Assembly (NCBI GenBank): GCA_964572255.1
Contig: CAZNEE010000001.1
Location: 2,223 to 66,222, forward strand
Source: an uncultured Planctomycetia bacterium
Lineage (GTDB): Bacteria; Omnitrophota; Gorgyraeia; Tantalellales; Tantalellaceae
Direction of reading: 5' to 3'
Length of the DNA: 64,000 nucleotides
Made by a program: the position numbers and the translations under genes. Positions 2,760 through 64,000 of this stretch are shown here, piece by piece (position 1 is the first letter of the stretch; each line of letters opens with the position of its first letter). Under the pieces are notes generated by a model that worked only from the letters and a program-made list of their open reading frames with translations, was not told the DNA's origin and made no database searches.

Positions 2760-2840
2760 TAGTATATTGGGAATTTTTAAACACTTCTGAGTATGTAGGG
2801 TGTTCCTAAATGGCACGTCCCTAAAAAAACTTAAAAAAAT

Positions 2841-2868
2841 TTGACTTATATGAAAAATGTGATATACT
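2841..2868 (+). promoter_or_regulatory. Sigma70-like promoter TTGACT-N16-TATACT driving the leader RNA below
   Basis: TTGACT at 2841-2846, 16 nt spacer, TATACT at 2863-2868; same hexamers and spacing recur at the paralogous module on the minus strand (55590..55563). Confidence 0.45.
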
Positions 2869-2914
2869 TTTAAACGTTAGTAAAGTTAGTAGTTTTTACT
2901 AAAGTTTTTGAAAC

Positions 2915-3060
2915 AATAGTAAACCATTCGCAAGGATGGGGCACAAAGCCAGAGGGGCCGAAACAGGCTAAGTGGAGGCCAGCCAGCTGCCGATATAGCT
3001 AATCGTTAAAGCGCATGGCAGAGTGTTTTGTGAACCCAACCTTCAATGGTTGGGTTTTTT
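2915..3060 (+). promoter_or_regulatory. Structured 5' leader RNA; candidate c-di-GMP-I (GEMM-like) riboswitch aptamer plus intrinsic terminator expression platform
   Basis: 'AAACCAUUCGCAAGGAUGGGGCACAAAGCC' closely matches my recollection of the Vibrio cholerae Vc2 GEMM P-hairpin/junction ('AAACCAUUCGAAAGAGUGGGACGCAAAGCC'); GNRA hairpin CCAUUC-GCAA-GGAUGG; paralogous copy at 55373..55512(-) with compensatory changes; ends in hairpin AACCCAACC-ttcaa-TGGTTGGGT + U6 (3033-3060). Confidence 0.55.
3033..3060 (+). terminator. Intrinsic terminator (riboswitch expression platform)
   Basis: 9-bp GC-containing stem (ACCCAACC/GGTTGGGT) with 5-nt loop followed by TTTTTT. Confidence 0.6.
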
Positions 3061-3160
3061 ATTGATGAAAGGAGGGGATTCAAAAAGTAAAGAACGATGG
3101 AATTGTAATGCAATTATATGCAAATAGTGAAAAATCTAAAAAGAAAGAGAGGTGAGTAAG

Positions 3161-3595
3161 ATGAAGAAAATTATGATATTAAGCGCTATATTGTTTTGTG
3201 TTTGTATCGTTGGCGTTAATCCCAGTTATGCGGGTTTAGATGTGTCAGAAACTTCACCCGGCACCTATACCTGGTTTTACACCGGGGTACCTCATGCTAA
3301 TGATTACCATATAAGAAGCGACGGGCTTTACGGCCCTACTCCTTCAGGTTGGTCACCTGACCCATCAGATGCTGATGGAGACCCCACTACAGACGATTGG
3401 TACTGGAGTGATCCAGGGGATTTTGATTTGAATGGGATGGGGGGAACTATTTCATATGCATCTTATACGCCATACATAAGAATCACACAAAATGGCGAGA
3501 CTATAGCTGAAAACCCTGAACCGGCAACCATGGCAATATTTGGTCTTGGCGGATTGGGTTTGGCGGTAAGAAGAAAATTTTTGCGTAAGGCGTGA
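3161..3595 (+). CDS. PEP-CTERM sorting-signal secreted protein
   Basis: N-terminal signal peptide; C-terminus '...PEPATMAIFGLGGLGLAVRRKF' = PEP motif + TM helix + basic tail; RBS AGAGAGG before ATG 3161 (ORF track starts at GTG 3152). Confidence 0.75.
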   Translation: MKKIMILSAILFCVCIVGVNPSYAGLDVSETSPGTYTWFYTGVPHANDYHIRSDGLYGPTPSGWSPDPSDADGDPTTDDWYWSDPGDFDLNGMGGTISYASYTPYIRITQNGETIAENPEPATMAIFGLGGLGLAVRRKFLRKA

Positions 3596-7946: not shown

Positions 7947-7990
7947 TAAGTTAAGATAGCGCTAAAAGCTGTGCTGACTTTGCATTTATA

Positions 7991-8064
7991 AGAGTGTAAT
8001 ATGTTTCCGTACAGGGAGGATCCACACTGGGCGGAGGGGCCCTGGTAGGAAATATATTACACTC
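7991..8064 (-). repeat. Copy A of dispersed GC-rich palindromic intergenic repeat (inverted orientation relative to copies B/C)
   Basis: Core CCAGGGCCCCTCCGCCC(A/G)GTGTGGATCCTCCCTG near-identical to 39646..39722 and 42855..42934; flanked by imperfect terminal inverted repeats; embedded in a longer palindrome 7971..8089. Confidence 0.7.
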
Positions 8065-8183
8065 ATGGGAGGATATAAAGTCAGCAGTACATTTTTATGA
8101 TATTTAACCGAAAAAAGTATTGATTTTACCGTATTAAGCGTATAATATTAGTTGTCAATTTAATATATAGTATAGGGAACAGG

Positions 8184-15878: not shown

Positions 15879-16808
15879 ATGAACCGTAAAGCACTTTTAC
15901 TATTAGCATCAATAGTTGTCGTAGCTATTACTTGCGTATCTTTTTTAGTTCTAAAACTTTCTCCGTCAAAAGACAAAGGTCTTATCAAATTAGATAAGGC
16001 CGCTTTAGTATATGAGCGGGGAGAAAAGTTCCTGAAAGAAGGAAGCTATGGCAGAGCCGCAGACGCTTTTATCGTGACGCTGAACAACTATTCTGATTCT
16101 GAATATTCGGAAAAATCTCTCAGAAAACTCGCCTCCATGTATCAGGAAAACGGTGATTATGCTAAAGCCAGGTATTATTACAAGAGACTTCTTAACAGTT
16201 TTCCGGATATTAAAGATAAAGACAATGTAAAGTCGCAGTTGGAAAAACTTAACATGGATGTTCTTATTTCTCCTGTGATAACGGAAGATAGCGTGGAATA
16301 TGCGGTAAAACCGGGGGATTCTCTATACAGTATAGCCAGTAAATTCAATACGACAATAGCGTTGATCAAGAAGATCAACAAACTTCAATCCGATGTTATT
16401 CGCCCCGGCCAGAAGCTTAAAATAAATATTTCAAAATTTTCAATATTCGTGGATAAATCTCTTAATATTCTCATCTTAAAAAAAGACGGAGAACCTTTTA
16501 AAACATATGTTGTCTCCACCGGCAAGGACAATTGCACTCCTGTAGGCAAATTCAAGATAACGGATAAGTCGATAAAACCTGTCTGGTACAGGCCCGACGG
16601 TAAAGTTATTCAGCCGGATTCTGAAGAATATGAACTGGGCGAAAGATGGATGGGGCTTACTATATCAGGGTACGGGATCCATGGCACCAATGATGAGAAT
16701 ACTATCGGCAGCCAGATAACCATGGGATGCGTCAGGATGCGAAATGACGATGTGGTGGAGCTCTTTGACATAGTCAGCCCGGGCACAGAAGTCGAAATTG
16801 TGAATTAA
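15879..16808 (+). CDS. LysM-domain L,D-transpeptidase (YkuD family)
   Basis: LysM 'YAVKPGDSLYSIASKFNTTIALIKKINKL', catalytic 'HGT...GCVRM' motif near C-terminus. Confidence 0.75.
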   Translation: MNRKALLLLASIVVVAITCVSFLVLKLSPSKDKGLIKLDKAALVYERGEKFLKEGSYGRAADAFIVTLNNYSDSEYSEKSLRKLASMYQENGDYAKARYYYKRLLNSFPDIKDKDNVKSQLEKLNMDVLISPVITEDSVEYAVKPGDSLYSIASKFNTTIALIKKINKLQSDVIRPGQKLKINISKFSIFVDKSLNILILKKDGEPFKTYVVSTGKDNCTPVGKFKITDKSIKPVWYRPDGKVIQPDSEEYELGERWMGLTISGYGIHGTNDENTIGSQITMGCVRMRNDDVVELFDIVSPGTEVEIVN

Positions 16809-16823
16809 AAGAGGCGATTTTTT

Positions 16824-17777
16824 ATGGCAATAATTTTAGATTTTGAGAAACCGATCATAGAACTTGAGAATAAAATAGAAGAACTCAAGAAATTCACCAG
16901 TGACGAGAATATCGATCTTTCCGATGAGATCGTAAAACTTACCCGCAGGCTGGAGAAACTCAAAGCGGATATTTTCGGAAAACTGACTTCCTGGCAAAGA
17001 GTTCAGTTAGCCCGTCATCCGGAACGCCCGTACACATTGGATTACATAGATATGTTAATGGATGATTTTATCGAGATCCACGGTGACAGACATTTCAGCG
17101 ACGACAAAAGCATGATAACGGGTCTGGCAAAGATGAACGGCAAAAAATTAGTAGTGATAGGCCATCAAAAAGGACGTGATACCAAAGAGAATCTCGAGAG
17201 GAATTTCGGCTGCGCTCATCCTGAAGGCTACCGGAAAGCCATGCGTATCATGTGTATGGCGGAAAAATTCAACCTTCCGATAGTGAGTTTAATTGATACT
17301 CCGGGCGCGTATCCAGGCATAGGGGCCGAAGAAAGGGGCCAGGCGGAAGCTATCGCGTATAATTTACGGGAGATGGCCGGATTAAAGGTCCCTATAATTA
17401 TATTTGTGATAGGAGAAGGCGGTTCAGGCGGAGCTTTAGGTATAGGGGTCGGAGATAAAGTATTTGTTCTGGAAAACGCGTACTATTCGGTTATTTCTCC
17501 CGAAGGGTGCGCAGCTATACTTTGGAAAGAACGGAGTAAAGCTCCTGATGCGGCTACGGCGCTTAGGTTAACGGCACCTGAATTGATGGAATTAGGGATT
17601 ATAGACGGGATCGTTCCCGAACCATTAGGGGGAGCGCACAGAAGCCCGGAGGAAACCGCACAGGGCATAAAAACAAAATTGACCGAAAGCTTGGAAGAAC
17701 TTTCCTCGAAATCAGTGGAAGAACTCTTAGAGGCAAGGTATAATAAATTCCGAAACATGGGAGTTTATAAAGAATAG
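16824..17777 (+). CDS. accA: Acetyl-CoA carboxylase carboxyltransferase alpha subunit
   Basis: Full-length AccA match ('[10 protein letters not shown]', 'GEGGSGGAL'). Confidence 0.9.
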
Positions 17778-20940: not shown

Positions 20941-21807
20941 ATGAGAAAGATGAGAATTTTGTTTTTATGCATGATTTTTGTTTTTAACATTGCTTTTATA
21001 GTTCCTTCCTGGGCGGAGGCAGTCAGAGTGTCTTCTTTAGCGGGTGATGTTAAGATCATTCCCGCAGGCGAGACTAAAGAAGTTGCCTGCACACCGGAGA
21101 TGGAATTGAAGCCGGGAGACCGTATCCTTACGGGGGATGAATCCCGTTTGGAGATGTATTTTGATAAAGCAAAACAAAATACCGCCACAGTTGAGTCCAA
21201 CAGCAATGTTGTTATTAGACTTCAAGAGGAAGATAAGATAGAGCTTATAGACGGCGAGCTCATAACGGCGTTAAATGACCTCGGCAAAGGCGAGGTTTTT
21301 AGGGTACGTACGCCTTCTGCGGTATGCGGCGCGAGAGGCACTATATGGGATACAGCTGTAATAAAAGGAGTAACTACGATTTCTACCTTAAAGGATAGGG
21401 TGTTTGTACGCGGCGTAAATAAAGACGGCTCTGTTATGGAGAAGGAATTCTGGGTCAAAGAAGGCTATGAAAGAAAGATCAAGAAGTTTGAACGGCCGGA
21501 AAAAATGCTGAAAATTTCAAGGGACAGGTTCGAAAAATTAAGAGAAAAAGCCGATATTAAGAAAAAAGAGAAAAAAGTTCCGGTAAGCAAGAAAAAGGCC
21601 CGCATGTTAGATAGGGCAAGAAGAGAGAGAAAGATGGACAGGATAGAGAAAATCGAAGAAAAAGACAGAGTTCTGGAAGACATTTCGGATATAAGGGACA
21701 AGTCCGTAACGAACGTGATAGAACAAAAGGACGAAACAAGGTTGGACAGCGTTCGCGATAAGCTTGATGACAGCAGCAACACCGGCACTAGAATTACAAA
21801 ACCTTAA
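20941..21807 (+). CDS. FecR-domain-like secreted protein, paralog 1, with highly charged K/R/D/E C-terminal tail
   Basis: Signal peptide; 'FRVRTPSAVCGARGTIWDT...VFVRG' FecR-like pattern; ORF-track start 20893 overlaps mlaD, ATG 20941 preferred. Confidence 0.5.
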   Translation: MRKMRILFLCMIFVFNIAFIVPSWAEAVRVSSLAGDVKIIPAGETKEVACTPEMELKPGDRILTGDESRLEMYFDKAKQNTATVESNSNVVIRLQEEDKIELIDGELITALNDLGKGEVFRVRTPSAVCGARGTIWDTAVIKGVTTISTLKDRVFVRGVNKDGSVMEKEFWVKEGYERKIKKFERPEKMLKISRDRFEKLREKADIKKKEKKVPVSKKKARMLDRARRERKMDRIEKIEEKDRVLEDISDIRDKSVTNVIEQKDETRLDSVRDKLDDSSNTGTRITKP

Positions 21808-35362: not shown

Positions 35363-35494
35363 TAGCGCGGAAAATACGTGTTTTCGGGGCATATATTTTT
35401 TATTTTTTAATATATAATTACATAATTATTTATTCTTGTAAAGCGTGTAAAAATGTGGTATAGTGAATTTGTAAATAAACATGGAGGTGTGGTA

Positions 35495-35923
35495 GTGGAA
35501 GATCGTCCAGAACAAAGACGTCATGAAAGGGTGAAAACCCACATTCCAATCAGGTACCGCAAATTGCGTGATACAGCGGGCATGTCGGGAGCCAGTTCTC
35601 TCTCCAAAAACATAAGCCAAGGCGGGATCAGATTCAGAACCGCGGAATTTATTTCAATGGCATGTAGGCTTATTTTGGAACTGGATATTCCGATGTTTAA
35701 CAAACCCGTTAAAGCCATTTCAAAGGTGGCTTGGATACGTAAAGCCGGTTCTGGCGACGATTATGAAGTGGGGAATCAGTTCCTTGAGATCTCCAAAAAA
35801 GACAAAGAGCTTATCACGGAATATGTAGATAGTCTTTCCAAGTACAACGATCAAGCAAGCACTGGTACCTCCAGTACGGACGATAAAACTAAAGATGCGA
35901 AAGAAAACAGTCCGGAAGCTTAA
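35495..35923 (+). CDS. PilZ-domain c-di-GMP-binding protein, paralog 1
   Basis: 'RRHERV' (RxxxR) and 'NISQGGIRF' (D/NxSxGG) PilZ motifs; GTG 35495 preceded by GGAGG (ORF track gives ATG 35453). Confidence 0.65.
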   Translation: MEDRPEQRRHERVKTHIPIRYRKLRDTAGMSGASSLSKNISQGGIRFRTAEFISMACRLILELDIPMFNKPVKAISKVAWIRKAGSGDDYEVGNQFLEISKKDKELITEYVDSLSKYNDQASTGTSSTDDKTKDAKENSPEA

Positions 35924-37811: not shown

Positions 37812-38210
37812 GTGAATAACAATAAAGAAAGAAGAAAATATAAAAGAGTGAGCGTACATATTCCGGTCAAGTATCGCGCTCTTAACTCGAGCCCGGATGA
37901 TCCGAATATCAGCACTGTTACCAAAAATATCAGTGAAAGAGGGATCAGATTCAGGGCGTCTGAGTTTATATCTATAGCTACGAGACTTGTTATGGAGATG
38001 GATGTTCCCTTGCTTAATAAGCCTATTAAAGCCATATCAAAGATAGCATGGATCCAAAAAACGCCTGCGGGCAACGATTACGAAGTCGGCGGCTATTTTC
38101 TGGAAATGGCGAAAAAAGACAAGGAAATAATTTCCGAGTATGTAGGGAACGTAGACTATAAAGACGATCCAGAGCAGGACAAGCCAAAAAAAGACAATTC
38201 CAGTAAATAA
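37812..38210 (+). CDS. PilZ-domain c-di-GMP-binding protein, paralog 2
   Basis: 'RRKYKRV' and 'NISERGIRF' motifs; collinear with paralog 1 ('KAISK(V/I)AWI(R/Q)K...GDDYEVG(N/G)(Q/Y)FLE(I/M)(S/A)KKDKE(L/I)I(T/S)EYV'). Confidence 0.65.
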   Translation: MNNNKERRKYKRVSVHIPVKYRALNSSPDDPNISTVTKNISERGIRFRASEFISIATRLVMEMDVPLLNKPIKAISKIAWIQKTPAGNDYEVGGYFLEMAKKDKEIISEYVGNVDYKDDPEQDKPKKDNSSK

Positions 38211-39515: not shown

Positions 39516-39645
39516 TACTTTCTCTCCTTAAATGTTTACTGTAACTAAATTTAGGAGCATAATTTAACACAGCTGGGCGTTGTTGTCAATGTTTTTATGA
39601 AACTATGGATATCAGGTATTATGCTGGTTTTGTTTGTAAACGTAT

Positions 39646-39722
39646 AAGAGTGCAGTATATTTCCTGCCAGGGCCCCTCCGCCCGGTGTGGATCCTCCCTG
39701 TACGGAAACATACTGCACTCTT
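39646..39722 (+). repeat. Copy B of dispersed GC-rich palindromic intergenic repeat
   Basis: AAGAGTGCAGTATATTTCC-TGCCAGGGCCCCTCCGCCCGGTGTGGATCCTCCCTGTAC-GGAAACATACTGCACTCTT; terminal inverted repeats; between divergent rpsT and murJ. Confidence 0.7.
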
Positions 39723-42821: not shown

Positions 42822-42854
42822 GTCACAAAAAATCATGCTGACGTCGCATTTATT

Positions 42855-42934
42855 AAAAGTACAGTATATTTCCTACCAGGGCCCCTCCGCCCGGTGTGGA
42901 TCCTCCCTGTACGGAAACATACTGCACTTTTAAA
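42855..42934 (+). repeat. Copy C of dispersed GC-rich palindromic intergenic repeat
   Basis: Core identical to copy B except flanks; lies between uvrC stop and prfB RBS. Confidence 0.7.
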
Positions 42935-54415: not shown

Positions 54416-54535
54416 TTTTTCCTCCTTTTCAGTTTACGATTTGTTATGCATGATTTATTGCGGATCATGCACCCATGCATATATAGACAAGTTTTCGGAG
54501 AAAAAACTTTCATTTAGAACAAAAATAATGCGAAA

Positions 54536-54579
54536 CAAAAAGACCCTGACCACTTTTTCTAGTGATCAGGGCCTTTTTT
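54536..54579. terminator. Bidirectional intrinsic terminator downstream of minus-strand PEP-CTERM gene
   Basis: GACCCTGACCACT / AGTGATCAGGGCC imperfect stem flanked by A5 (left) and T6 (right). Confidence 0.45.
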
Positions 54580-54627
54580 ATGACCAAAATGAATATAAGC
54601 TTGTAAAGCTACTTCTAATTATTTTAT

Positions 54628-55323
54628 TTATTTTCTAAATCTTTTTATTGCAAACCCCAGTCCTGCTAACAGGAACGAGAACATAGTTGCGGGTTCGGGA
54701 ACAGGATCGGGATCTTCTGGCGGTGATTCCTGTTCAGCAGTTATAAGTTGTACCATATCACCGCTATCCATACCGGCGTCATATGTATTGTCATCTGGAT
54801 CAAAAGGATTATTTGCGTATTCAAAAAGAATTAGATCGGCATCGATGCCCCCCGGGGTTATGAGTGTCGCTGAACCGCCCGGAATGGATTCTGCCGGATT
54901 GGCCGGAGGCCAGGAAGGCGTGCCAAAGAAAACCCTATGGATTATATCGGGATCCATATCGTAATATAATATTTCCGTTGCATAAAAACTATAGGGAGTA
55001 CCCCAGACAGCCGGCCAAAAGGTCCAGACTGGTCCGCTTAATCCATCATCAGAACCAAGGCGCCAAGACCCGAAAGATCCCACAGAAGGATCCCACATTG
55101 GCGTAACAGAAACCTGTGCGCCATTATCCCAATCCCAATAAATATCCCCAGATTGGAGTGGGGCATTTATAGTAGTGTTTGCCGGAAGATCCCAGACATC
55201 AAATGGGGGTTCGGTGGTCTCTATTGCTACGTCACTGGTTATCGGCGCCGCCCCGGCGCTTTGCGCCATAAACAAAAGACCAGCCGCAATTACCGCAATT
55301 GCTATTAAACTTAAATTCTTCAC
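54628..55323 (-). CDS. PEP-CTERM sorting-signal secreted protein
   Basis: Signal peptide 'MKNLSLIAIAVIAAGLLFMAQSAGA'; C-terminus 'VPEPATMFSFLLAGLGFAIKRFRK'. Confidence 0.75.
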   Translation of the reverse strand: MKNLSLIAIAVIAAGLLFMAQSAGAAPITSDVAIETTEPPFDVWDLPANTTINAPLQSGDIYWDWDNGAQVSVTPMWDPSVGSFGSWRLGSDDGLSGPVWTFWPAVWGTPYSFYATEILYYDMDPDIIHRVFFGTPSWPPANPAESIPGGSATLITPGGIDADLILFEYANNPFDPDDNTYDAGMDSGDMVQLITAEQESPPEDPDPVPEPATMFSFLLAGLGFAIKRFRK

Positions 55324-55372
55324 TTTGGTCCTCCTTCTTGTTACTTTTTAAACTTCACATCTTTACTAAAAC

Positions 55373-55512
55373 AAAAAAACCCAACCATTGAAAGGTTGGG
55401 TCACAAAGATCCTCTTACACTTTTTACGATAGTGCAAATCGGCAACCGGCTGGGTCTCGCTTAATCTGCTAAACCCCCTGTGGTTTTGTGCCCCATTCTT
55501 GCAAATGGTTTA
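55373..55512 (-). promoter_or_regulatory. Paralogous structured leader RNA (candidate c-di-GMP-I/GEMM-like riboswitch + terminator), copy 2
   Basis: Reverse complement reads AAACCAUUUGCAAGAAUGGGGCACAAAACC...GCCGAU...ACCCAACCUUUCAAUGGUUGGGUUUUU; collinear with 2915..3060. Confidence 0.55.
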
Positions 55513-55562
55513 CTATTAGTATTGGTAAAAAGAGCATAATTGCTTACTTTACTATCTCTTAA

Positions 55563-55590
55563 AGTATACCACATGTTTTCCGAAAGTCAA
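55563..55590 (-). promoter_or_regulatory. Sigma70-like promoter TTGACT-N16-TATACT (minus strand) driving leader copy 2
   Basis: Reverse complement of 55585-55590 = TTGACT, of 55563-55568 = TATACT; overlaps 3' end of anti-sigma gene. Confidence 0.4.
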
Positions 55591-56018
55591 TTTTTTTTAG
55601 TAAGTTTTTTCGATTCGAAGTGGGAGAGGAGTCGGTTGGTTTTATCTTGGTCGCCGCTTTTCCAGGCCTCATGGATCATTACGAGCATCTTTGTTGTTCT
55701 TGCCTCGATTATCCATTTAGCGCCCATCAATAAGCACGCGACGAGGAATTGAAGAAAATATTTTGAAAAAATAAAAGAGCAGGCAAAAGTGATGATTGTT
55801 CCCAGGAGCCAGCGATTCTTTCTGATCCACCGAAAAATGCTTTCTTTCAGCTCAAAAATATCAGGTTGGCTTAATATCTCATGGGTCTCTGCCAGGAGCT
55901 TCCGGCATTTGTCGCATGAGGCAAGATGCTGTTCCACGCTTCTTTTTAGTCCATCTTCAAGCAGACCGTTCATATATTCGCTCAGGATTTCTTCTGTAGG
56001 GCATATGCGGCTGTTCAT
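55587..56018 (-). CDS. Anti-sigma factor with N-terminal zf-HC2 zinc finger and C-terminal TM anchor
   Basis: 'EQHLASCDKCRKLLAETHE' HxxxCxxC motif; immediately downstream of ECF sigma gene. Confidence 0.6.
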   Translation of the reverse strand: MNSRICPTEEILSEYMNGLLEDGLKRSVEQHLASCDKCRKLLAETHEILSQPDIFELKESIFRWIRKNRWLLGTIITFACSFIFSKYFLQFLVACLLMGAKWIIEARTTKMLVMIHEAWKSGDQDKTNRLLSHFESKKLTKKN

Positions 56019-56077
56019 GATCTATTCTCCTTTTTACATATATAGACAAATTTTTCAGTCAAAAACGTTCACCGATC

Positions 56078-56884: not shown

Positions 56885-56993
56885 ATATATATTCAAATAA
56901 AAGAATAAAAAGCAAGAAAAGCACTAAGTTATATGTGCTTTTAATTTTTGCAAAGAAAATTAAGAAATTTTAAAGTAAGATGGGGTTGGGAAA

Positions 56994-59900
56994 ATGATAA
57001 ACGCTTGGCAAAAAGACAATTCGTCCATAGTAAGCAAAAAGACACTAATAAGGGTCGTGGCGCTTATTACATTAGTGGCTTTTGTGCTTACTATGGATGG
57101 GGGTATTCTTACCGACATTGCGCACGCCTCGAACCTACCTTCAAATTCCGCGAATAGCTTCAACGCCCGATTGATCAAGTTGCCGGAATACCTTGGCCAC
57201 ATAAAAGAATCCCATAATACTTTTTCAGAAAGAATAGTTATTCACATTCAGGATGCCCACTGTAATTATGCCGCCCAAAAGAAAATTGCCGATATAATCC
57301 GATATCTCAATGATACATACGCGATAGACACCGCCAACCTGGAAGGAGGAAAAGGCAATTATGATCTTTCACCTTTTTCCGGTATTTCCGATAAGGCTGT
57401 TCGCGAAAAAATATCTGATCATTTTGTTAAGGAAGGGCTTATAAACGGAGCGGAGTATTTTGCCATAAATAGTCCAAATCAAGTAAAGCTGTGGGGGATA
57501 GAAGATGAAGGGCTTTATGTAAGAAATCTTAATGTATATCGGGATGCTATTAAGCATAAAAAAGAGGCTGATAAATATATAAATGAACTCGGGCAGGCAT
57601 TAACTGGCCTTAAACGCCATATTTATTCAGAGGAACTTTTAAAGCTGGATGGGGTCTATTCCGAGTTTAAAGAGCAGGAAATAGAGTTAAGGGATTATCT
57701 CGCATATCTATTCAATAAAGCTGATGAAAGATCCATCGATATCAAGGCATTCCCGAATTTGTACCTGTTAAATCAGGCGATCAGGGAAGAAAGAAAGATA
57801 GATTTTGAAAAGGCCGATAAAGAAAGGACCCGTCTTATAAATAGATTGGAGAACAAGCTCTCCAGATACGATATTGAGGAACTCCTCTTAAAAATGGTCG
57901 AATTTAAAGAAGAGAGGATAACACAGGATAGTTTTTACAGATACCTTGCAAGAAAAGCAAGGCTGGCCAATATCAGCCTGGAGGGATCTCCCGAACTCAG
58001 GAAATATATCATATATGTATCCATATATAATTCTTTGGATGAAATTACACTATATGAAGAGATAGAAGCCCTTGAGGGAAAGATCCAACAGTCTTTGTGT
58101 GAGAACGAGACCCAACTTGAGCTATATGAACTTTCAAGGAACTTTGCTTTAACGAAAAACATTCTGGATTTTTCAATAACAAGCAACGATTACAGGTATT
58201 ACAAGGATAATCAAAAGCTTTTTAAGGTCAAAAATTATATATCATTTATAGGAAAATACTCACCGCGATATAAAATTACCGCAAAAGTTGATAATAATTT
58301 ACGGGATCTTGATCGTTATCGTGATGAAGCCATAAAGTTCTATGAATATTCATTCGAAAGGGACAAGGCATTTATAAAAAATCTTAAATGGTCGCAAGCA
58401 AAAGACCAGGGCCGGCAAATCACTATCCTTATAACAGGCGGTTTCCACTCGGAGAACCTTACCGGTCTTTTAAAAGAGAAAGGGATCTCTTTCATCTCGA
58501 TAGCGCCGAACTTTAAATGCGAGGAGGGGTACGAATCGCCTTACTTTGATCTTTTAAGCGGCGGCAAAGGCTCTCTGGTAAAGCTTATCGAGACAAGCAC
58601 TTCGGGCCTTGCGATGCATAGTTTGCTTTCAGAGATGGAAGTTATCGATATAGATAAGGAAGGCATTAAGCGGGCCATAGAAGTCCTTGAAGCATTAGAA
58701 AAAGAAGGGAGCATCACTCTTCCCGCCAGGTACGGATCTGTTACATTTTCACGCGAAGCCATAAGCGACCTCTCAGAGGAAAAGAAAAGGATGAACGGAT
58801 ACACGGTCTATGTGACCAGGGAAGATATCCAAAGAGAGGGTTCATCTGAAGGCAAAGAAGATAAACGGGCATTACAGGCAATTGAAAAAGATCACATTGC
58901 AAAAAGAATTATAAACCGCACCTTTGGTAATGCCAGGGCTGTTTCTGGATTGTTCCACCCGTTAAGCTTGATTTTACTGCTTACTGCACCAAGTCTTTTT
59001 GTGACAAAAATTGCTTTCTGGATTCTTATAAGCGCCACGTCACTATTTATAACAAAAGAGATATTACATTATTTCGGATTATTGGATAGAGATAAAACAA
59101 AGTCTCCCGCCTGGTTTGATAAACTTTCATTTGATTTTGCGAAAAAAGGCATGGTTCTCGGGATGGTCTTTTTGGGGTTTATGGCTTTTTATTTTATTGT
59201 ATCTCCCGGCTCTATTATCCCGAATTATATGACCTGGTCGAACTTGATCTCGGGTAGAAATCCGATATGGGATATTATTTTTACTGGAGGAGTATTTGGT
59301 CTTTTCATTTTACCGCTTCAATTATTTGTATCCGGGATGAGTGAGGGCATAAGTGGTTTATTTAAGGAAGCCATTACAGATCGTCTCCCTTTCAGGGAGA
59401 AAAAAAGATCTTCCTGGCACAGCGAAGAGGAAGCTGCGTATTTATTGATTTGTTATGCACCGATCCTTGAAGAATCGGCACGATTTATTAATATATGGGC
59501 GTATTTATATGGAGCTTTATATGTTTTAGGGTTAAGTACACAGTCATCCATTTTATTCGCGATTGTGGCGTCATCTCTTCATTTTTGGGCAACTCATTGC
59601 TCTCATAAAAGTCTCGCGACTTTACTTGAAGGGGTATTTTTAGGCGTTTTGACGGTTTTTATCAATAACCCTATTGTTAATTATGCCAGCCATTTTTGGC
59701 ATAACGTTTTTTATGGTGGAGCTTCATCTGCACTTTCAAGAGATGGCGAAGAACAGGGAAAACCAAAGTCATCTCCCGATGAAACCAGCGTTGAAGTTGA
59801 AAAGGTTCAGGATCCGACAGCGGATATGATCGAAGCCATAATCGAGCTCCATAAGGCGAATGATCAGATGGAACGCATATCCGAAGAGGAACTCACGCAG

Positions 59901-62900
59901 CACCTTAAGAACCCTGAAAGTATTATTTTCATCGCAAAAGATGCAAAAACAGAAAAAGTCGTAGGATGTTTCTTTGGTGTGCCTCAGATATATGTCCCGG
60001 GGACCGTATATTTAGAAAGGCCTGATACAGTCAGGATCAAGAACCAGACGTTTTATGAAGTGTCAGGACAGGTGCTTCCGAATTACCAGGGTAAAGGGAT
60101 AGGCACTGCCTTAAGGCGGGAATTAAGGGACGAAGTTAGATATACAGGCAGATTCCAATACATCGCCTGTCATCAGTACAAGTCATTCGATGAGCTTAAG
60201 CTGATAAAAGAGCTTAAAAAATACGGCCAGGGCGATAAGTTGCACATAGCCATAAATACCAGCCCCCAATATATCGTAATAAAGCTTAACCCTGCGGATA
60301 AAGACAACAAACCTGCACCGACCTTAAAAAAGAAAATCCGTCGTTTTCTGGTCATTTTAGTGATGTTCTTTACGCTTGGCTATTATGCGCTTACCAGCGG
60401 GATATTATCTAATGTTAACGGTTCGAGGCAGGTTGTTCATATTTTAAAAGCGGCTGTCACCTGGGTTCTTCCTTCCGGTGATGAAAATCCGCAGGAGAGA
60501 GAAAATATTGATGGCAACATGATCGAGGAGTCAGAAGCTAGTGTTACCGCAGAACCTATCATTGCCCACAAAGAAGAGTATGGTATTGAAGTTGGAGAAG
60601 AAAAGGAAGCAGGCGGTAAAGATGCAGGCAAGACCGCCGGGCTTAAGAAACACACATTGAAGAAAATGTTCAAAACTGTCTTGCGCAAAAGCCTATCAGC
60701 CTTAAAATGGCTGGCCTGTGTAGTTTTGATAGGAAGCACGCCCAAAGATGAGATGCTTTTTAATCCGTCGGAAGAGACATACGATATATGGCGTGAAAAT
60801 GAAGCAGATCCTTCTCTTTTGAAGCAAAAATCTTCGGAAGTCGATGATAGGTTGACTCTTGCCCCGCTTTTACAGAAAAAAACGGCAGCAGACCTCAGGA
60901 AAGAAATCCATAAAAAATTGGTAAGAAAACGATTTCCTTCTAGAATTATTAATTGGATCTTTCCCTACGCAAAGAAACAGTTTTCAGAAAAATTATACAG
61001 ATCATTAAATAGCTTAAAAGATGCCCATGTTTATAAAATTCATCTTTTGTTGGAGTTTTTAAGTAAAGAGGAAAACGTAAGATCGATCCTGGCGGAATTA
61101 AAGCAAGCCGCAAAAGATGAAAAAGAGGCAGGAGGAGTTTTCAGGTTTACGGACGGAAAAGTAGAATTTTGCCCGTATCCGGCATCCAAATATTTGGGCA
61201 ACAAATATCACATGGTCGGAATAAAAGATTTTGATTACAAGGATCTGTTGTTCGGGTTTCATTCACATCCTCCTGCAGCTTTTGGCTGGGGGCCCAGCCA
61301 AGCCGATGTTGATATGTCTTTTATTTCAGACACATCACAAATCCTGTTTTATACCGACGGACTATCTTCCGGCCGGTTCAGTGTGATATTTTTCCAGGCA
61401 TATAACATAGATGGAGAATTTTCCGACTACATAAACATCCATTTAGGCAACTATTCATATTCAAGAAAGCCCGATTCTTTGTCAGAAGAAACGATAGCTT
61501 TTCTTGATTCTTTTCCTAGAAGAGGGAAGCCTCTCACCCCCAGTTCCAATATAGGCAATCTTGCCCGCATGGTAAGCAAAAAAGGCAGTATCGCAACCAT
61601 AGAAAATTCAGAAGGAGAATTGCACGAAGTTAAGCTGGAGTATCATGGCAAGTTGAACGTAAAACGCATTAAGAGAGAGTTTGATTTTGCAGATTATGTA
61701 TGGGGCGGAAAGAAAGAACTTCTTTTTATGTTCCTGGATCTGGTCGAACCTCTGAAACCAAGCATATATTATTTTGATGGCAGTGCAGAGAAAATCGAAG
61801 ACCTTTCGGCTTTTTCATCTTTTGAGTACGGTCTTTTAGCTTTTCATCCGAATTTGGCATCTAATTTACTTGCTCAATTGCATGAAATAGGGCATTACCT
61901 GATAGATTACAGGGAAGGCAATGCGAAGAAGGGACTGTTGGACCTTAAATATAAGAGAACGGACGAAGAGGAATTTATTATAGTCAGGGCGAGAGAGACT
62001 GTTTCAGATAAATTGAAAGTGATAAGAAAGATACATCTTTCCCCGGATACTTCATGGTATATCCAAAATGAAGATTGGCCGGAGGGGTGGGAAGAAGATC
62101 CCCATTATCTTTTAAGGGTACTTTTCAGGGAGATCTTTGATGAGGTCGATCAAGACCTGACCGAGGACATAAAGTACTTGTTACAGGCAAGAAAGATAAA
62201 CTCTGAAACCGGTAATAAAAAAGGAACTTCCGGCAAAACCACTTTACGCATGGGCGGCATGGGCATAGCAGCGCCTTTTGCGGCGCATTTGGCCGGGCTG
62301 ATCTCGCTTCCTGTGGCTTTTCAGCTCATATTCGCAATTACAATAATATCCCTTGTTTCGATGATACTCAGTCAGATGACCGCTTTTGATGATTCTAAGC
62401 TTTGTGATGTAAATGACGAGGCACGGGAAAACCGGAAAAAAGAATATATATCCAAAAAAGCCATCAATGAACTTAAAGCGAATTATGGGCTCCTGCCCAA
62501 AGAGCACAAGTTATCACAATATATCAAGGATCTCTTAAGGGAAATTTACCCCGAACTCAGTGACGAAGAACTGCCAAAAGTAGAGGTACTTGCGTCCAGA
62601 GGTTACGGTGTAAATGCCATGGTTTTCCCGAATAATACCATCGTTATTACTCCGGAACTTCTCGAGTTCGCCGAATACAAGGAAGAGCTGATCCATATCC
62701 TTTTTCATGAGATCGTGCATATGGACAGGGAACATTTTAAGCGTGACAAAAATGCCGGATCGATCCGGGAACTCCTTGGACTAATGAGATACGATGAGTA
62801 CGAGGCTGACATGGCGGCTTTTCGCATGCTCCAGGACAAGGGCTTTAATCCTCAAGGCGCCATATCCATGATGAAAAAGTTTAGAGATGCTTTCGGTAAA

Positions 62901-64000
62901 TATAGATTAGAGAGGGAGCTTAATGTCGTACACGGGGAAGAAACAGACCGTCTTCTTAACATGGAAAGCCTTACGTATCTGGAAGATTATAAGGACCTTT
63001 CATTTTCATTGACACCGCTTCCGAAAGAAGTTTGGAAAGGCGCCTCTAGAGATGGTTTTATAAGAAGCGGGAACAGAAGGGATCTTATATTGAATGATTC
63101 GTACCCGATAGAAGATCGCATGAGGTTGATATTCCAGGCAGATCAGTATCTCCTGCAGGAGATTCTGGGAGAGCTTTGCGGCAAGATAATATTAAGCGAG
63201 AGTGAGCTCCGCAAGCTCGGCAGGGACGAAGATGACATGACTTCTGCAATAGCGGTGCAATTATCGGAACAAAGGATGCTTCTTAAGAAAGCGATCGAAC
63301 GGCTAAAAGAGATATTAGAGGAGAAGACCAGCGGAGAAAATGCGAAAGTTTTAAACTTTACCATTGTGAGCTTGATCTTCGGAGTCCCTTTTGACGTTTC
63401 CCCCGAAACATTAAGAAGCGGATATTTCCGGGATATCAAGGGGGATTTCTATGAACAATTAGACAGTGACCCGGAGGCCGTAATAGAGTCGATCGAAAGA
63501 TTGCTTACAAACGGCGTGATGGAGAAATTAGATCTTGTAATAGACGGTAATACGCTCAGCAGTTTTTTAATAGGATTATCTCAAGCGGCGGCGGAAAGAG
63601 GCTTGTACGATAAAGACGAAGGCTTTGATTTTAAAATGTACCTTAAAAATTCATTCAGGCTTCTTGAGGGCGGAGCTTTTTATGCCGGAAGAGAGGGCAT
63701 GGGAGACTGTGGCTGCAGCTGCTGCGGCGGTGTATTTAATAAATCTGTAATATGGACACGCATTGTCTTTAGAGGGCTATGGGAGATCTTCGACCTGGGA
63801 CAGGTTGAAGAGGGCATATTTGAGGAGGACAATTTATTTCATTATTTTAAGGAGGTAAATGAGTATAAAGGTTCTGCACAGGTAAATCGTGAATTACTGA
63901 CATCTTTTGCCTCCTCCAGCAGGGAAGTTGATATTAAAAAAATGGATTCTGAGATCAAAAGAGTCGGGCTATTCAGGAAAGACATCGAGGAAGAAAACGA
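56994..64000 (+). CDS. Giant multidomain membrane protein (3' partial; at least 2335 codons, continues beyond window) - not in supplied ORF track
   Basis: Manual translation from ATG 56994 (in-frame TAA at 56976-56978 upstream) reaches window end with no stop; contains TM segments, TraB/Tiki/ChaN-like motifs, GNAT-like 'QGKGIGTAL', JAMM-like 'HSHP..S..D', 'HEIGH', M48-type 'HEIVH...EYEAD', Cys cluster 'GDCGCSCCGG'. Confidence 0.8.
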   Translation, partial: MINAWQKDNSSIVSKKTLIRVVALITLVAFVLTMDGGILTDIAHASNLPSNSANSFNARLIKLPEYLGHIKESHNTFSERIVIHIQDAHCNYAAQKKIADIIRYLNDTYAIDTANLEGGKGNYDLSPFSGISDKAVREKISDHFVKEGLINGAEYFAINSPNQVKLWGIEDEGLYVRNLNVYRDAIKHKKEADKYINELGQALTGLKRHIYSEELLKLDGVYSEFKEQEIELRDYLAYLFNKADERSIDIKAFPNLYLLNQAIREERKIDFEKADKERTRLINRLENKLSRYDIEELLLKMVEFKEERITQDSFYRYLARKARLANISLEGSPELRKYIIYVSIYNSLDEITLYEEIEALEGKIQQSLCENETQLELYELSRNFALTKNILDFSITSNDYRYYKDNQKLFKVKNYISFIGKYSPRYKITAKVDNNLRDLDRYRDEAIKFYEYSFERDKAFIKNLKWSQAKDQGRQITILITGGFHSENLTGLLKEKGISFISIAPNFKCEEGYESPYFDLLSGGKGSLVKLIETSTSGLAMHSLLSEMEVIDIDKEGIKRAIEVLEALEKEGSITLPARYGSVTFSREAISDLSEEKKRMNGYTVYVTREDIQREGSSEGKEDKRALQAIEKDHIAKRIINRTFGNARAVSGLFHPLSLILLLTAPSLFVTKIAFWILISATSLFITKEILHYFGLLDRDKTKSPAWFDKLSFDFAKKGMVLGMVFLGFMAFYFIVSPGSIIPNYMTWSNLISGRNPIWDIIFTGGVFGLFILPLQLFVSGMSEGISGLFKEAITDRLPFREKKRSSWHSEEEAAYLLICYAPILEESARFINIWAYLYGALYVLGLSTQSSILFAIVASSLHFWATHCSHKSLATLLEGVFLGVLTVFINNPIVNYASHFWHNVFYGGASSALSRDGEEQGKPKSSPDETSVEVEKVQDPTADMIEAIIELHKANDQMERISEEELTQHLKNPESIIFIAKDAKTEKVVGCFFGVPQIYVPGTVYLERPDTVRIKNQTFYEVSGQVLPNYQGKGIGTALRRELRDEVRYTGRFQYIACHQYKSFDELKLIKELKKYGQGDKLHIAINTSPQYIVIKLNPADKDNKPAPTLKKKIRRFLVILVMFFTLGYYALTSGILSNVNGSRQVVHILKAAVTWVLPSGDENPQERENIDGNMIEESEASVTAEPIIAHKEEYGIEVGEEKEAGGKDAGKTAGLKKHTLKKMFKTVLRKSLSALKWLACVVLIGSTPKDEMLFNPSEETYDIWRENEADPSLLKQKSSEVDDRLTLAPLLQKKTAADLRKEIHKKLVRKRFPSRIINWIFPYAKKQFSEKLYRSLNSLKDAHVYKIHLLLEFLSKEENVRSILAELKQAAKDEKEAGGVFRFTDGKVEFCPYPASKYLGNKYHMVGIKDFDYKDLLFGFHSHPPAAFGWGPSQADVDMSFISDTSQILFYTDGLSSGRFSVIFFQAYNIDGEFSDYINIHLGNYSYSRKPDSLSEETIAFLDSFPRRGKPLTPSSNIGNLARMVSKKGSIATIENSEGELHEVKLEYHGKLNVKRIKREFDFADYVWGGKKELLFMFLDLVEPLKPSIYYFDGSAEKIEDLSAFSSFEYGLLAFHPNLASNLLAQLHEIGHYLIDYREGNAKKGLLDLKYKRTDEEEFIIVRARETVSDKLKVIRKIHLSPDTSWYIQNEDWPEGWEEDPHYLLRVLFREIFDEVDQDLTEDIKYLLQARKINSETGNKKGTSGKTTLRMGGMGIAAPFAAHLAGLISLPVAFQLIFAITIISLVSMILSQMTAFDDSKLCDVNDEARENRKKEYISKKAINELKANYGLLPKEHKLSQYIKDLLREIYPELSDEELPKVEVLASRGYGVNAMVFPNNTIVITPELLEFAEYKEELIHILFHEIVHMDREHFKRDKNAGSIRELLGLMRYDEYEADMAAFRMLQDKGFNPQGAISMMKKFRDAFGKYRLERELNVVHGEETDRLLNMESLTYLEDYKDLSFSLTPLPKEVWKGASRDGFIRSGNRRDLILNDSYPIEDRMRLIFQADQYLLQEILGELCGKIILSESELRKLGRDEDDMTSAIAVQLSEQRMLLKKAIERLKEILEEKTSGENAKVLNFTIVSLIFGVPFDVSPETLRSGYFRDIKGDFYEQLDSDPEAVIESIERLLTNGVMEKLDLVIDGNTLSSFLIGLSQAAAERGLYDKDEGFDFKMYLKNSFRLLEGGAFYAGREGMGDCGCSCCGGVFNKSVIWTRIVFRGLWEIFDLGQVEEGIFEEDNLFHYFKEVNEYKGSAQVNRELLTSFASSSREVDIKKMDSEIKRVGLFRKDIEEEN

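Follow-up and report, generated by a model that had tools for sequence, protein, structure and literature searches.

In the Vibrio cholerae riboswitch Vc2, a member of the c-di-GMP-I (GEMM-I) class, G20 and C92 each pair with one guanine of cyclic di-GMP (c-di-GMP), and A47 intercalates between them (PMC5888326; PMC6140456). In riboswitches of the GEMM-Ib type, G20 is replaced by an adenine (A14 in Gs1761) that recognizes the adenine of 3',3'-cGAMP, the cyclic dinucleotide of GMP and AMP (PMC6140456). A G20A mutant of Vc2 bound c-di-GMP at 53 nM, with a protonated adenine, and cGAMP at 120 nM, and was bispecific by isothermal titration calorimetry; bispecific binding has also been attributed to natural riboswitches with an adenine at this position (A20), among them Cbe 1-2 of C. 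beijerinckii (PMC6140456). Here, these systems are compared with two control regions in 64,000 nucleotides of DNA from an uncultured bacterium of the Omnitrophota (contig CAZNEE010000001.1; this whole stretch is referred to below as the window). Each region (copy 1 on the forward strand, copy 2 on the reverse strand) comprises a promoter, a GEMM-I aptamer and an intrinsic terminator upstream of a gene for a PEP-CTERM protein. According to the interpretation that we favor with moderate confidence, these modules are self-contained cassettes with PEP-CTERM cargo, in which the GEMM-I riboswitch would act as an OFF switch for a guanine-containing cyclic dinucleotide.

In the ON switch of Geobacter metallireducens pilM, the terminator overlaps the 3' strand of the aptamer and the two structures are mutually exclusive (PMC9262584). 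In the OFF switch Cd1 of C. difficile, the aptamer can form together with the terminator, and an antiterminator that opens part of the pocket competes with both; the Vc2 riboswitch has been described as translational (PMC9262584). An earlier annotation of the window, made from its letters alone (the sequence-only reading), had considered the pairing of a c-di-GMP riboswitch with PEP-CTERM genes to be undescribed. Such a pairing had already been reported for Methylophaga nitratireducenticrescens GP59, in which three PEP-CTERM genes and one VPLPA-CTERM gene are listed with c-di-GMP riboswitches upstream (PMC12530212, 2025). In the Geobacter gene lists drawn on here, the riboswitch-controlled genes GSU1945 and GSU1948 adjoin the PEP-motif genes GSU1943 and GSU1944, but are different genes.

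Comparison of the whole window with 4227 Rfam families (cmscan) placed the leaders of copy 1 (2908..2994, + strand) and copy 2 (55438..55524, - strand) in family RF01051, with scores of 51.1 bits (E = 4.8e-7) and 50.2 bits (E = 7.9e-7), respectively, relative to a gathering score of 35 bits. Both alignments were full-length (model positions 1-87 of 87) and the only other Rfam matches in the window were two tRNAs. On the basis of these covariance-model matches, both modules carry a riboswitch of the GEMM-I, or c-di-GMP-I, fold that belongs to RF01051. The string AAACCAUUCGCAAGGAUGGGGCACAAAGCC (2921-2950), to which the sequence-only reading had drawn attention, lies inside the copy 1 match, and the second copy that it had noted was recovered on the - strand with the same type of promoter and terminator and its own PEP-CTERM gene. 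Its proposal of a c-di-GMP-I riboswitch was thereby borne out for the fold; for c-di-GMP as the ligand it is insecure, in view of the adenine at the G20 position.

Relatives were sought by scanning an aptamer pattern over genome and metagenome contigs, which yielded five loci in metagenome-assembled genomes of Firmicutes, one contig of a bioreactor metagenome, and one allele of copy 1; the genome from which the window derives gave no match, and neither did viral contigs when scanned with a relaxed A20 pattern. The allele (L012, identical to L014 and L015) represents the copy 1 locus of a related strain from another metagenome. Its neighboring genes are virtually identical to those in the window, its leader differs at a handful of positions, and its aptamer scored 51.7 bits with RF01051. 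The sequence of the copy 2 aptamer also occurs, without any change, in metagenome contig L016. Copy 1, copy 2, and L012 constituted the comparative set of three sequences used below. The Firmicutes and bioreactor loci encode GEMM-I aptamers of the G20, receptor-containing type, and nine aligned Firmicutes and bioreactor aptamers, all with G20 and a GAAA tetraloop plus receptor, scored 75-84 bits.

In copy 1, the junction between helices P1 and P2 (J1/2, ACAAUA, 2913-2918) precedes the P2 closing pairs G2919-C2944 and U2920-A2943, the P2 hairpin CCAUUC-GCAA-GGAUGG (2924-2939), and helix P3 (2947-2988). The CCAUUC-GNRA-GGAUGG hairpin described by the sequence-only reading is thus present, with a GCAA loop that is also of the GYRA type, and the GNRA loop follows a 2-bp stem and an AAA bulge. 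When the Rfam-type structure and the terminator were laid over the three sequences, 96% of the cells were paired and four pairs had changed on both sides. The covariation score was equaled in just 3 of 500 shuffles, and partners slid out of register paired in 28-48%. Together, the paired cells, the compensatory changes, and the shuffle and slide controls indicated that the aptamer is under selection and not a relic. Tetraloops were GCAA (in copy 1 and copy 2) or GUAA, no GAAA loop with an 11-nt receptor in P3 was found, and the distal P3 pairs of the RF01051 model were all non-canonical. A GAAA tetraloop with an 11-nt receptor defines the 'type 1' architecture but is not obligatory for RF01051. 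The modest Rfam scores can be attributed to the GYRA-type, receptor-less architecture found here. The distal loop of P3 (2960-2976; copy 2, 55472-55456(-)) has a constant length of 17 nt, a conserved A-CAG-UUAAG-G pattern, and a 2-bp inner stem that covaries from A-U to G-C. In place of the usual receptor, the GYRA tetraloop might dock at this loop.

The position equivalent to Vc2 G20 and Gs1761 A14 (model position 11, cmscan posterior '*') is an adenine in copy 1 (2918, + strand), in copy 2 (55514(-)), and in L012, and not the canonical G. The intercalating adenine (Vc2 A47, Gs1761 A41) is A2945 in copy 1 and the pocket cytosine (Vc2 C92, Gs1761 C75) is C2990, and equivalents of both are present in copy 2 and L012. 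At Vc2 positions 20/47/92, the pocket consequently reads A/A/C, as in GEMM-Ib, rather than the G/A/C of canonical c-di-GMP-I riboswitches. Copy 1 and L012 have exactly the same junction, ACAAUA, as J1/2 of G. metallireducens pilM (sequence in the supplement of PMC9262584) and A9-A14 of Gs1761 (PMC6274999); copy 2 has CUAAUA. Nine of the 11 ligand-contacting residues listed for Gs1761 (G8, A11, A12, U13, A14, C15, A41, A42, G74, C75, and C76; PMC7288161) are identical in copy 1. The exceptions are G8, which is an A here, where P1 is lacking, and C15, which is a G and makes the first pair of P2 a G-C, like that of Vc2, and not a C-G.

Because A20 is insufficient for selectivity, as illustrated by the bispecific Vc2 G20A and Cbe 1-2, the ligand cannot be called from sequence alone. 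We infer a guanine-containing cyclic dinucleotide, which could be c-di-GMP, 3',3'-cGAMP, or both. Judged by its residues, the pocket should accept 3',3'-cGAMP and probably c-di-GMP too, and the ligand acting in the cell would depend on whether the organism makes cGAMP. As a working assumption, binding is taken to be dual-capable, and c-di-GMP is considered the more likely physiological signal in view of the PilZ receptors encoded in the vicinity. Consistent with the earlier claim of two PilZ proteins, Pfam identified them at 35453-35923 and 37812-38210, both small and single-domain. Regular expressions for GGDEF, EAL, HD-GYP, and PilZ matched nothing and were too strict for PilZ, as the two Pfam matches showed. 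The two PilZ genes flank a pair encoding a BamD-like protein and LptE, and a relative (L020) retains one of them at the same place. The presence of the two PilZ genes, one of which is kept in L020, indicates that c-di-GMP receptors exist in the lineage. A REC-GGDEF gene is present in a relative, and neither the motif search nor Pfam detected a GGDEF motif or domain in the 64-kb window. Taken with the lack of a cGAMP synthase within these 64 kb, the two PilZ genes and the REC-GGDEF gene weakly favor c-di-GMP.

In Gs1761, the junction is closed by P1, formed by G1-G8 and C76-G84, with G8 stacked on the ligand (PMC6274999). In the window, the 3' sequence CGAU(A/U)U has no complement in the 5' flanks of the aptamers (UUUUUGAA in copy 1, CAAUA in copy 2). 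Directly 3' of the pocket C, RNAalifold and pair counts revealed a 4-bp hairpin, CGAU-N7-AUCG (2991..3005, + strand; copy 2, 55441-55427(-)), with an invariant stem, and hence no covariation support, and a different loop in each of the three sequences. This hairpin may substitute for P1, with the closing pair C2991-G3005 in place of C76-G8. A P1 helix between the transcript start and the 3' tail, as seen in the minimum-free-energy (MFE) fold of copy 1 and possible in copy 2, was rejected: L012 has the same 5' end, but its 3' tail can no longer pair with it.

Upstream of the aptamer, copy 1 contains the sigma-70-type promoter TTGACT-16-(TG)n-TATACT that the sequence-only reading had located at 2841-2868 (2841..2868, + strand), with 10 of 12 consensus matches and TG upstream of the -10 element. 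The copy 2 promoter (TTGACT-16-TATACT, 55563..55590, - strand) is of the same type, and the arrangement in L012 is the same as in both copies. An A-rich, UP-element-like tract (2823..2840, + strand; copy 2 equivalent, 55610-55591(-)), recognized in the module alignment, would presumably assist the promoter in this capacity; its pattern occurs only twice in the window. Transcription of copy 1 would start at about 2875-2876. The 5' end of the transcript folds in MFE structures into a 9-bp stem-loop (2877..2902, + strand), of which the outer GUAAAG/UUUUAC stem is retained in copy 2 (55552-55525), where a second stem takes the place of the loop. This element may protect the 5' end of the mRNA or act as a folding insulator. 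The transcript starts UAGUAAAG (2877-2885; 55552-55545(-)), which form this stem-loop, repeat the aptamer's own UAGUAAAC (2916-2924). RNAalifold also paired leader columns 14-19 with the 3' strand of the aptamer, with one compensatory change and mostly G-U pairs, which could reflect a competitor helix or chance.

The intrinsic terminator of copy 1 (GAACCCAACC-UUCAAU-GGUUGGGUUU plus U-run; 3032..3060, + strand), found by MFE folding and a terminator scan, agrees with that placed earlier near 3033-3060: a 10-bp, G+C-rich stem (3032-3057) is followed by a T-run to 3060. In copy 2, folding and the scan (which gave 55402-55378) revealed a 9-bp stem plus U-run at 55368..55402 (- strand). In both, the stem is followed by six to seven or more U, as in rho-independent terminators, and the terminator is also conserved in L012. 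From the predicted start (~2876) to the end of the terminator, the leader measures ~185 nt and not ~145 nt, as had been estimated. A promoter and an aptamer separate the upstream gene from the terminator, which supports the earlier view that the latter is regulatory and does not merely end an upstream transcript. From promoter through terminator, copies 1 and 2 are 75% identical. The promoter and terminator strings each had exactly two sites in the window and none in 100 shuffles, so that chance does not explain them. A strong Shine-Dalgarno-like GAAAGGAGG (3063-3074; L012, 2648-2657) immediately follows the terminator of copy 1 and precedes the real start by about 90 nt. No usable start codon follows it in copy 1; in copy 2, AAGGAGG takes the equivalent place and is the actual ribosome-binding site. 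Additional leader sequence may have been acquired by copy 1 after duplication.

In copy 1, 37 nt separate the end of the aptamer (2994) from the start of the terminator (3032), and the two do not overlap. This separation corresponds to the layout of Cd1, from which an OFF switch is predicted. Between the copies, about half of the ~30-nt linker has diverged; the exceptions are AUCG and the UUUGUGA that directly precedes the terminator. UUUGUG is complementary to CACAAA in the junction between P2 and P3 (J2/3), which holds the intercalating adenine, and the complementarity continues (ACCC/UGGG(G), CCUU/AAGG) into the 3' arm of P2. The predicted antiterminator would therefore pair AAGGAUGGGGCACAAA, spanning the P2 loop, the P2 3' arm, and J2/3 (2932..2947, + strand; copy 2, 55500-55485(-); from duplex energies), with UUUGUGA and the 5' arm of the terminator (3027..3043, + strand; copy 2, 55407-55391(-); from conservation and energies). 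In all three sequences, this was the best duplex of the terminator-proximal strand with the whole aptamer (-16.9, -16.8, and -13.9 kcal/mol), and shuffled strands matched these energies in 1, 1, and 7% of trials. In transcripts truncated at the terminator loop, the antiterminator was the MFE structure in L012 and copy 2 (two of three) and, when enforced, lay no more than about 2.5 kcal/mol from the aptamer state in each of the three. With a balance this close, bound ligand could tip it.

In the proposed switch, the exposed junction CACAAA would, in the absence of ligand, nucleate pairing with UUUGUG during transcription. The antiterminator would then invade the 3' arm of P2 and hold the 5' arm of the terminator, resulting in read-through. 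With ligand bound, the junction would be buried and P2 locked, so that the terminator could form and transcription would stop before the gene. A high level of the dinucleotide would thus turn the PEP-CTERM genes off, and at a low level they would be expressed. Such an OFF switch, with ligand-induced termination, is the mode of action that this model makes moderately probable. The induction of a matrix protein by the signal, implied by the sequence-only reading, would then probably be reversed.

Several observations weigh against the interpretation as OFF-switch cassettes for a guanine-containing dinucleotide. The pocket is mixed, with a Vc2-like G-C as its first P2 pair where Geobacter riboswitches have C-G, and canonical P1 is absent, including the ligand-stacking G8-C76 pair. 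Shuffle statistics for the antiterminator are modest (p about 0.01, 0.01, and 0.07), and its strands are invariant, so that no covariation is available for that helix. For the full-length leader, aptamer plus terminator is always the favored equilibrium state, so that the switch would depend on co-transcriptional kinetics. Just three related sequences were recovered, two of which are near-identical alleles, and no cGAMP synthase (Hypr GGDEF or DncV/CD-NTase) was seen within the 64-kb window.

With respect to the ligand, the elements might be canonical c-di-GMP-selective class I riboswitches in which A20 is a tolerated variant and c-di-GMP the sole physiological ligand. RF01051 scores above the gathering score, the Vc2-like G-C pair, and the signaling genes (PilZ in the window, GGDEF in a relative, no cGAMP synthase seen within 64 kb) agree with this, as does the 53 nM binding of c-di-GMP by Vc2 G20A via its protonated adenine (PMC6140456). 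However, all three sequences have A and not G at the specificity position, the junction of copy 1 and its allele is exactly the ACAAUA of Geobacter GEMM-Ib (CUAAUA in copy 2), and G20A variants bind cGAMP about equally, which makes strict selectivity unlikely in vitro; exclusive use of c-di-GMP is thus possible, with the balance tilted against it. That the elements are true GEMM-Ib riboswitches, with a selectivity of at least 100-fold for 3',3'-cGAMP, and reflect cGAMP signaling in Omnitrophota seems rather doubtful. This reading would account for the A at the G20 position, for a J1/2 equal to those of Gs1761 and pilM, which are themselves ~1000-fold cGAMP-selective, for the pilM-like GYRA tetraloop without 11-nt receptor, and for the nine identical contact residues out of 11. 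Yet A20 is necessary and not sufficient (Vc2 G20A is bispecific and Cbe 1-2 is described as such), the C15-G40 pair is flipped to G-C and G8-C76 is not canonically formed. Moreover, the characterized GEMM-Ib members are all Geobacter ON switches, whereas the architecture here is of the OFF type and in an unrelated phylum, and no synthase is known here.

With respect to the direction of switching, an ON switch, in which the ligand prevents termination and the dinucleotide induces the PEP-CTERM proteins, would meet the biological expectation that c-di-GMP usually induces matrix components. It would also match the ON behavior of Geobacter GEMM-Ib members and the formation of the terminator at equilibrium without ligand, the state in which an ON switch rests by default. 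We nevertheless consider it unlikely: neither terminator arm overlaps or complements any strand sequestered by ligand binding, the only strong alternative partner of the terminator 5' arm is the P2/J2/3 region of the aptamer, which ligand binding withdraws, and the known design (pilM) needs an overlap of aptamer and terminator that is absent here. A combined reading, in which a cGAMP-selective riboswitch of the GEMM-Ib type operates outside Geobacter with a 3'-local hairpin for P1, a P2/junction switching strand, OFF behavior, and swappable PEP-CTERM cargo, is improbable. Least probable by far are decaying relic aptamers in a duplicated cassette, with expression set by the promoter and a constitutive attenuator only. 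Scores of ~51 bits, well below the 75-84 bits of the Firmicutes examples, the missing P1, and the misfit of distal P3 to the model would suit such decay, but in copies that are ~25% diverged every core position is retained and P3 has undergone compensatory changes, and the nine substitutions of L012 in or just after the aptamer lie in loops or linkers or, where they affect stems, are compensated or improve pairing. The lower score is, moreover, explained by the receptor-less GYRA-type architecture.

The gene controlled by copy 1 (3161..3595, + strand) encodes a 144-aa secreted PEP-CTERM protein with a signal peptide, a unique mature domain, and a PEPATMAIFGLGGLGLAVRRKFLRKA tail; its ATG at 3161, correctly assigned to a PEP-CTERM gene by the sequence-only reading, is preceded by the ribosome-binding site GAGAGGUGA. 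The copy 2 gene (54628..55323, - strand) encodes a 231-aa PEP-CTERM protein from a GTG start after AAGGAGG. Scores with PF07589 were 29.2 bits (copy 1) and 21.1 bits (copy 2) at a cut-off of 20.7, and with TIGR02595 21.1 and 22.4 bits, respectively, at a cut-off of 16. The PEP-CTERM models matched the last 21-25 residues of the copy 1 protein, and signal peptides are visible in both translations. The proteins of copy 1, copy 2, and L012 have only the signal peptide and the tail in common, and their mature domains are unrelated. A profile of these three full-length proteins, searched against 5.8 billion proteins, retrieved only themselves and one weak match (P0004), whose contig carries no riboswitch. 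Matches of a tail-only profile (Phycisphaerae, Bryobacterales, and others) were discarded as generic PEP-CTERM fragments and not relatives. No exosortase (EpsH/XrtA family) was found within the 64-kb window, in which both genes sit among housekeeping genes and not near exosortase or polysaccharide genes. The two metagenome alleles of the copy 1 locus (3161-3595, 144 aa; L012, 2701-3225, 174 aa) share flanks, riboswitch, tail, and the start of the signal peptide, a pattern that, at the sequence level, resembles the exchange of a surface-protein domain between strains in the manner of a cassette.

The copy 2 module (~1.1 kb, 54530-55610) is an insertion between an anti-sigma gene and spoVG. It is closed, upstream of spoVG, by a terminator-like stem-loop plus U-run (54533..54579, - strand), which was read from the sequence and was not listed by the terminator scan; alignment with syntenic relatives shows where the insertion ends. 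The SecA regions of five related Omnitrophota contigs (L019, L020, L021, L022, and L023) were read for comparison. In L019, L020, and L022, whose SecA proteins are 72-73% identical, the genes for the extracytoplasmic function (ECF) sigma factor and anti-sigma factor and spoVG are adjacent, with a gap of only ~30-140 nt at the insertion spot (16912-17041, 21455-21484, and 16787-16926, respectively). L021 has a gap of 175 nt before the contig ends just upstream of spoVG, and L023 is rearranged there. Rfam gave no match of any kind, GEMM-I included, in the five contigs. The absence of the module from syntenic relatives and its unrelated cargo point to a self-contained, recently inserted, and duplicated cassette with an exchangeable coding part.

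The assignment of the host is supported by the SecA protein of the window, for which the 35 best named homologs (58-74% identity) all derive from Candidatus Omnitrophota. Exact protein matches located the window at about 2316-66315 of a 526,890-bp metagenome contig (JGI 3300029258, Ga0309772_1000002). Genes for Mla, BamD-like, LptE, and Lnt proteins in the window indicate that the host is a diderm. Other elements of the window were also noted. A 78-nt imperfectly palindromic repeat occurs in three intergenic copies (7989-8066, 39645-39722, and 42854-42931), the second and third of which are 95% identical and the first of which has the opposite orientation and is 90-92% complementary; it resembles a repetitive extragenic palindromic (REP) or miniature inverted-repeat transposable element (MITE)-like element. 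Just after the ECF sigma gene starts an open reading frame of >2336 aa (56991-63998, + strand) that runs off the window end and has a short Peptidase_M48 segment (aa 1844-1916) as its sole Pfam match; L022 has an open reading frame of >1662 aa at the matching position. A 35-nt motif (- strand, ...CTCCGAAAACTTGTCTATATATG) is found upstream of both spoVG (54478-54512) and the anti-sigma gene (56037-56071), is partly conserved upstream of spoVG in L020 (about 21460-21480), and may be a promoter recognized by the adjacent ECF sigma factor. Among the loci retrieved with the aptamer pattern, L007 (979-6308) and L011 (3314-8643), from a Syntrophomonadaceae metagenome-assembled genome and a bioreactor metagenome, carry G20-type c-di-GMP-I riboswitches (84 bits) that adjoin genes with mttB-type pyrrolysine insertion elements (Rfam PYLIS_3).

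Standard pipelines would label these elements as c-di-GMP-I riboswitches, and A20 together with the Geobacter-type junction means that this label may misname the ligand. To our knowledge, Omnitrophota are an uncultured phylum with essentially unknown signaling; a short RNA that can be transcribed in vitro could directly reveal which cyclic dinucleotide their cells use. If the OFF switch is real, the signal shuts off, rather than induces, strain-variable surface proteins, and the cassettes would provide a further case of a GEMM-I riboswitch that can apparently do without a canonical P1. Selectivity for cGAMP, if true, would be a first sign of 3',3'-cGAMP signaling in Omnitrophota, while a c-di-GMP ligand and a conventional design would make the locus an ordinary new occurrence of a well-known riboswitch.

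Among known systems, the Geobacter GEMM-Ib riboswitches (Gs1761/pgcA, PDB 4YAZ; pilM/Gm0970) share with the two copies the fold, which is likewise filed under RF01051, an A at the G20 position, J1/2 ACAAUA (copy 1 and L012), the intercalating A, and the pocket C, as well as a GYRA-type loop without 11-nt receptor and control by transcription termination. They differ from them in that the first P2 pair is G-C here, canonical P1 is lacking, and the distal loop of P3 is a conserved 17-nt sequence. Moreover, whereas the Geobacter members are ON switches with an overlapping terminator, the terminator is separate here and OFF is predicted; the host belongs to Omnitrophota and not to Desulfuromonadales, and the targets are PEP-CTERM proteins and not cytochromes or pili. 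The platform resembles that of C. difficile Cd1, an OFF switch of the flagellar operon, in its separate terminator, which is able to coexist with the folded aptamer, and in the predicted competition by an antiterminator that unfolds part of the pocket, with termination caused by the ligand. Unlike the elements in the window, Cd1 carries a G at position 20 and combines a GAAA tetraloop with its receptor, and its antiterminator pairs with the 3' strand of the aptamer (C87/G86) instead of, as predicted here, the P2 3' arm and J2/3.

Vc2 has a P1 helix and a tetraloop receptor. Its P2 hairpin geometry, AAA bulge, CAAAGCC junction, G-C first P2 pair, and 3' CCGAU all recur in the window, with A in place of its G20. 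The elements of strain GP59 are similar in that an annotated c-di-GMP riboswitch is paired with genes for exosortase-sorted proteins in several copies per genome. In that gammaproteobacterium, however, they are clustered within 18 kb with exopolysaccharide genes, whereas the cassettes described here are solitary insertions, 52 kb apart and surrounded by housekeeping genes. Precedents therefore exist for the A20 pocket (GEMM-Ib), for a separate terminator with OFF control (Cd1), and for the association with PEP-CTERM genes (GP59). What appears to be new is their combination and the host, with an A/A/C pocket and a Geobacter-type junction in Omnitrophota without canonical P1, to which the model would add a predicted OFF platform, with the junction serving as its toehold, and a portable cassette with variable cargo.

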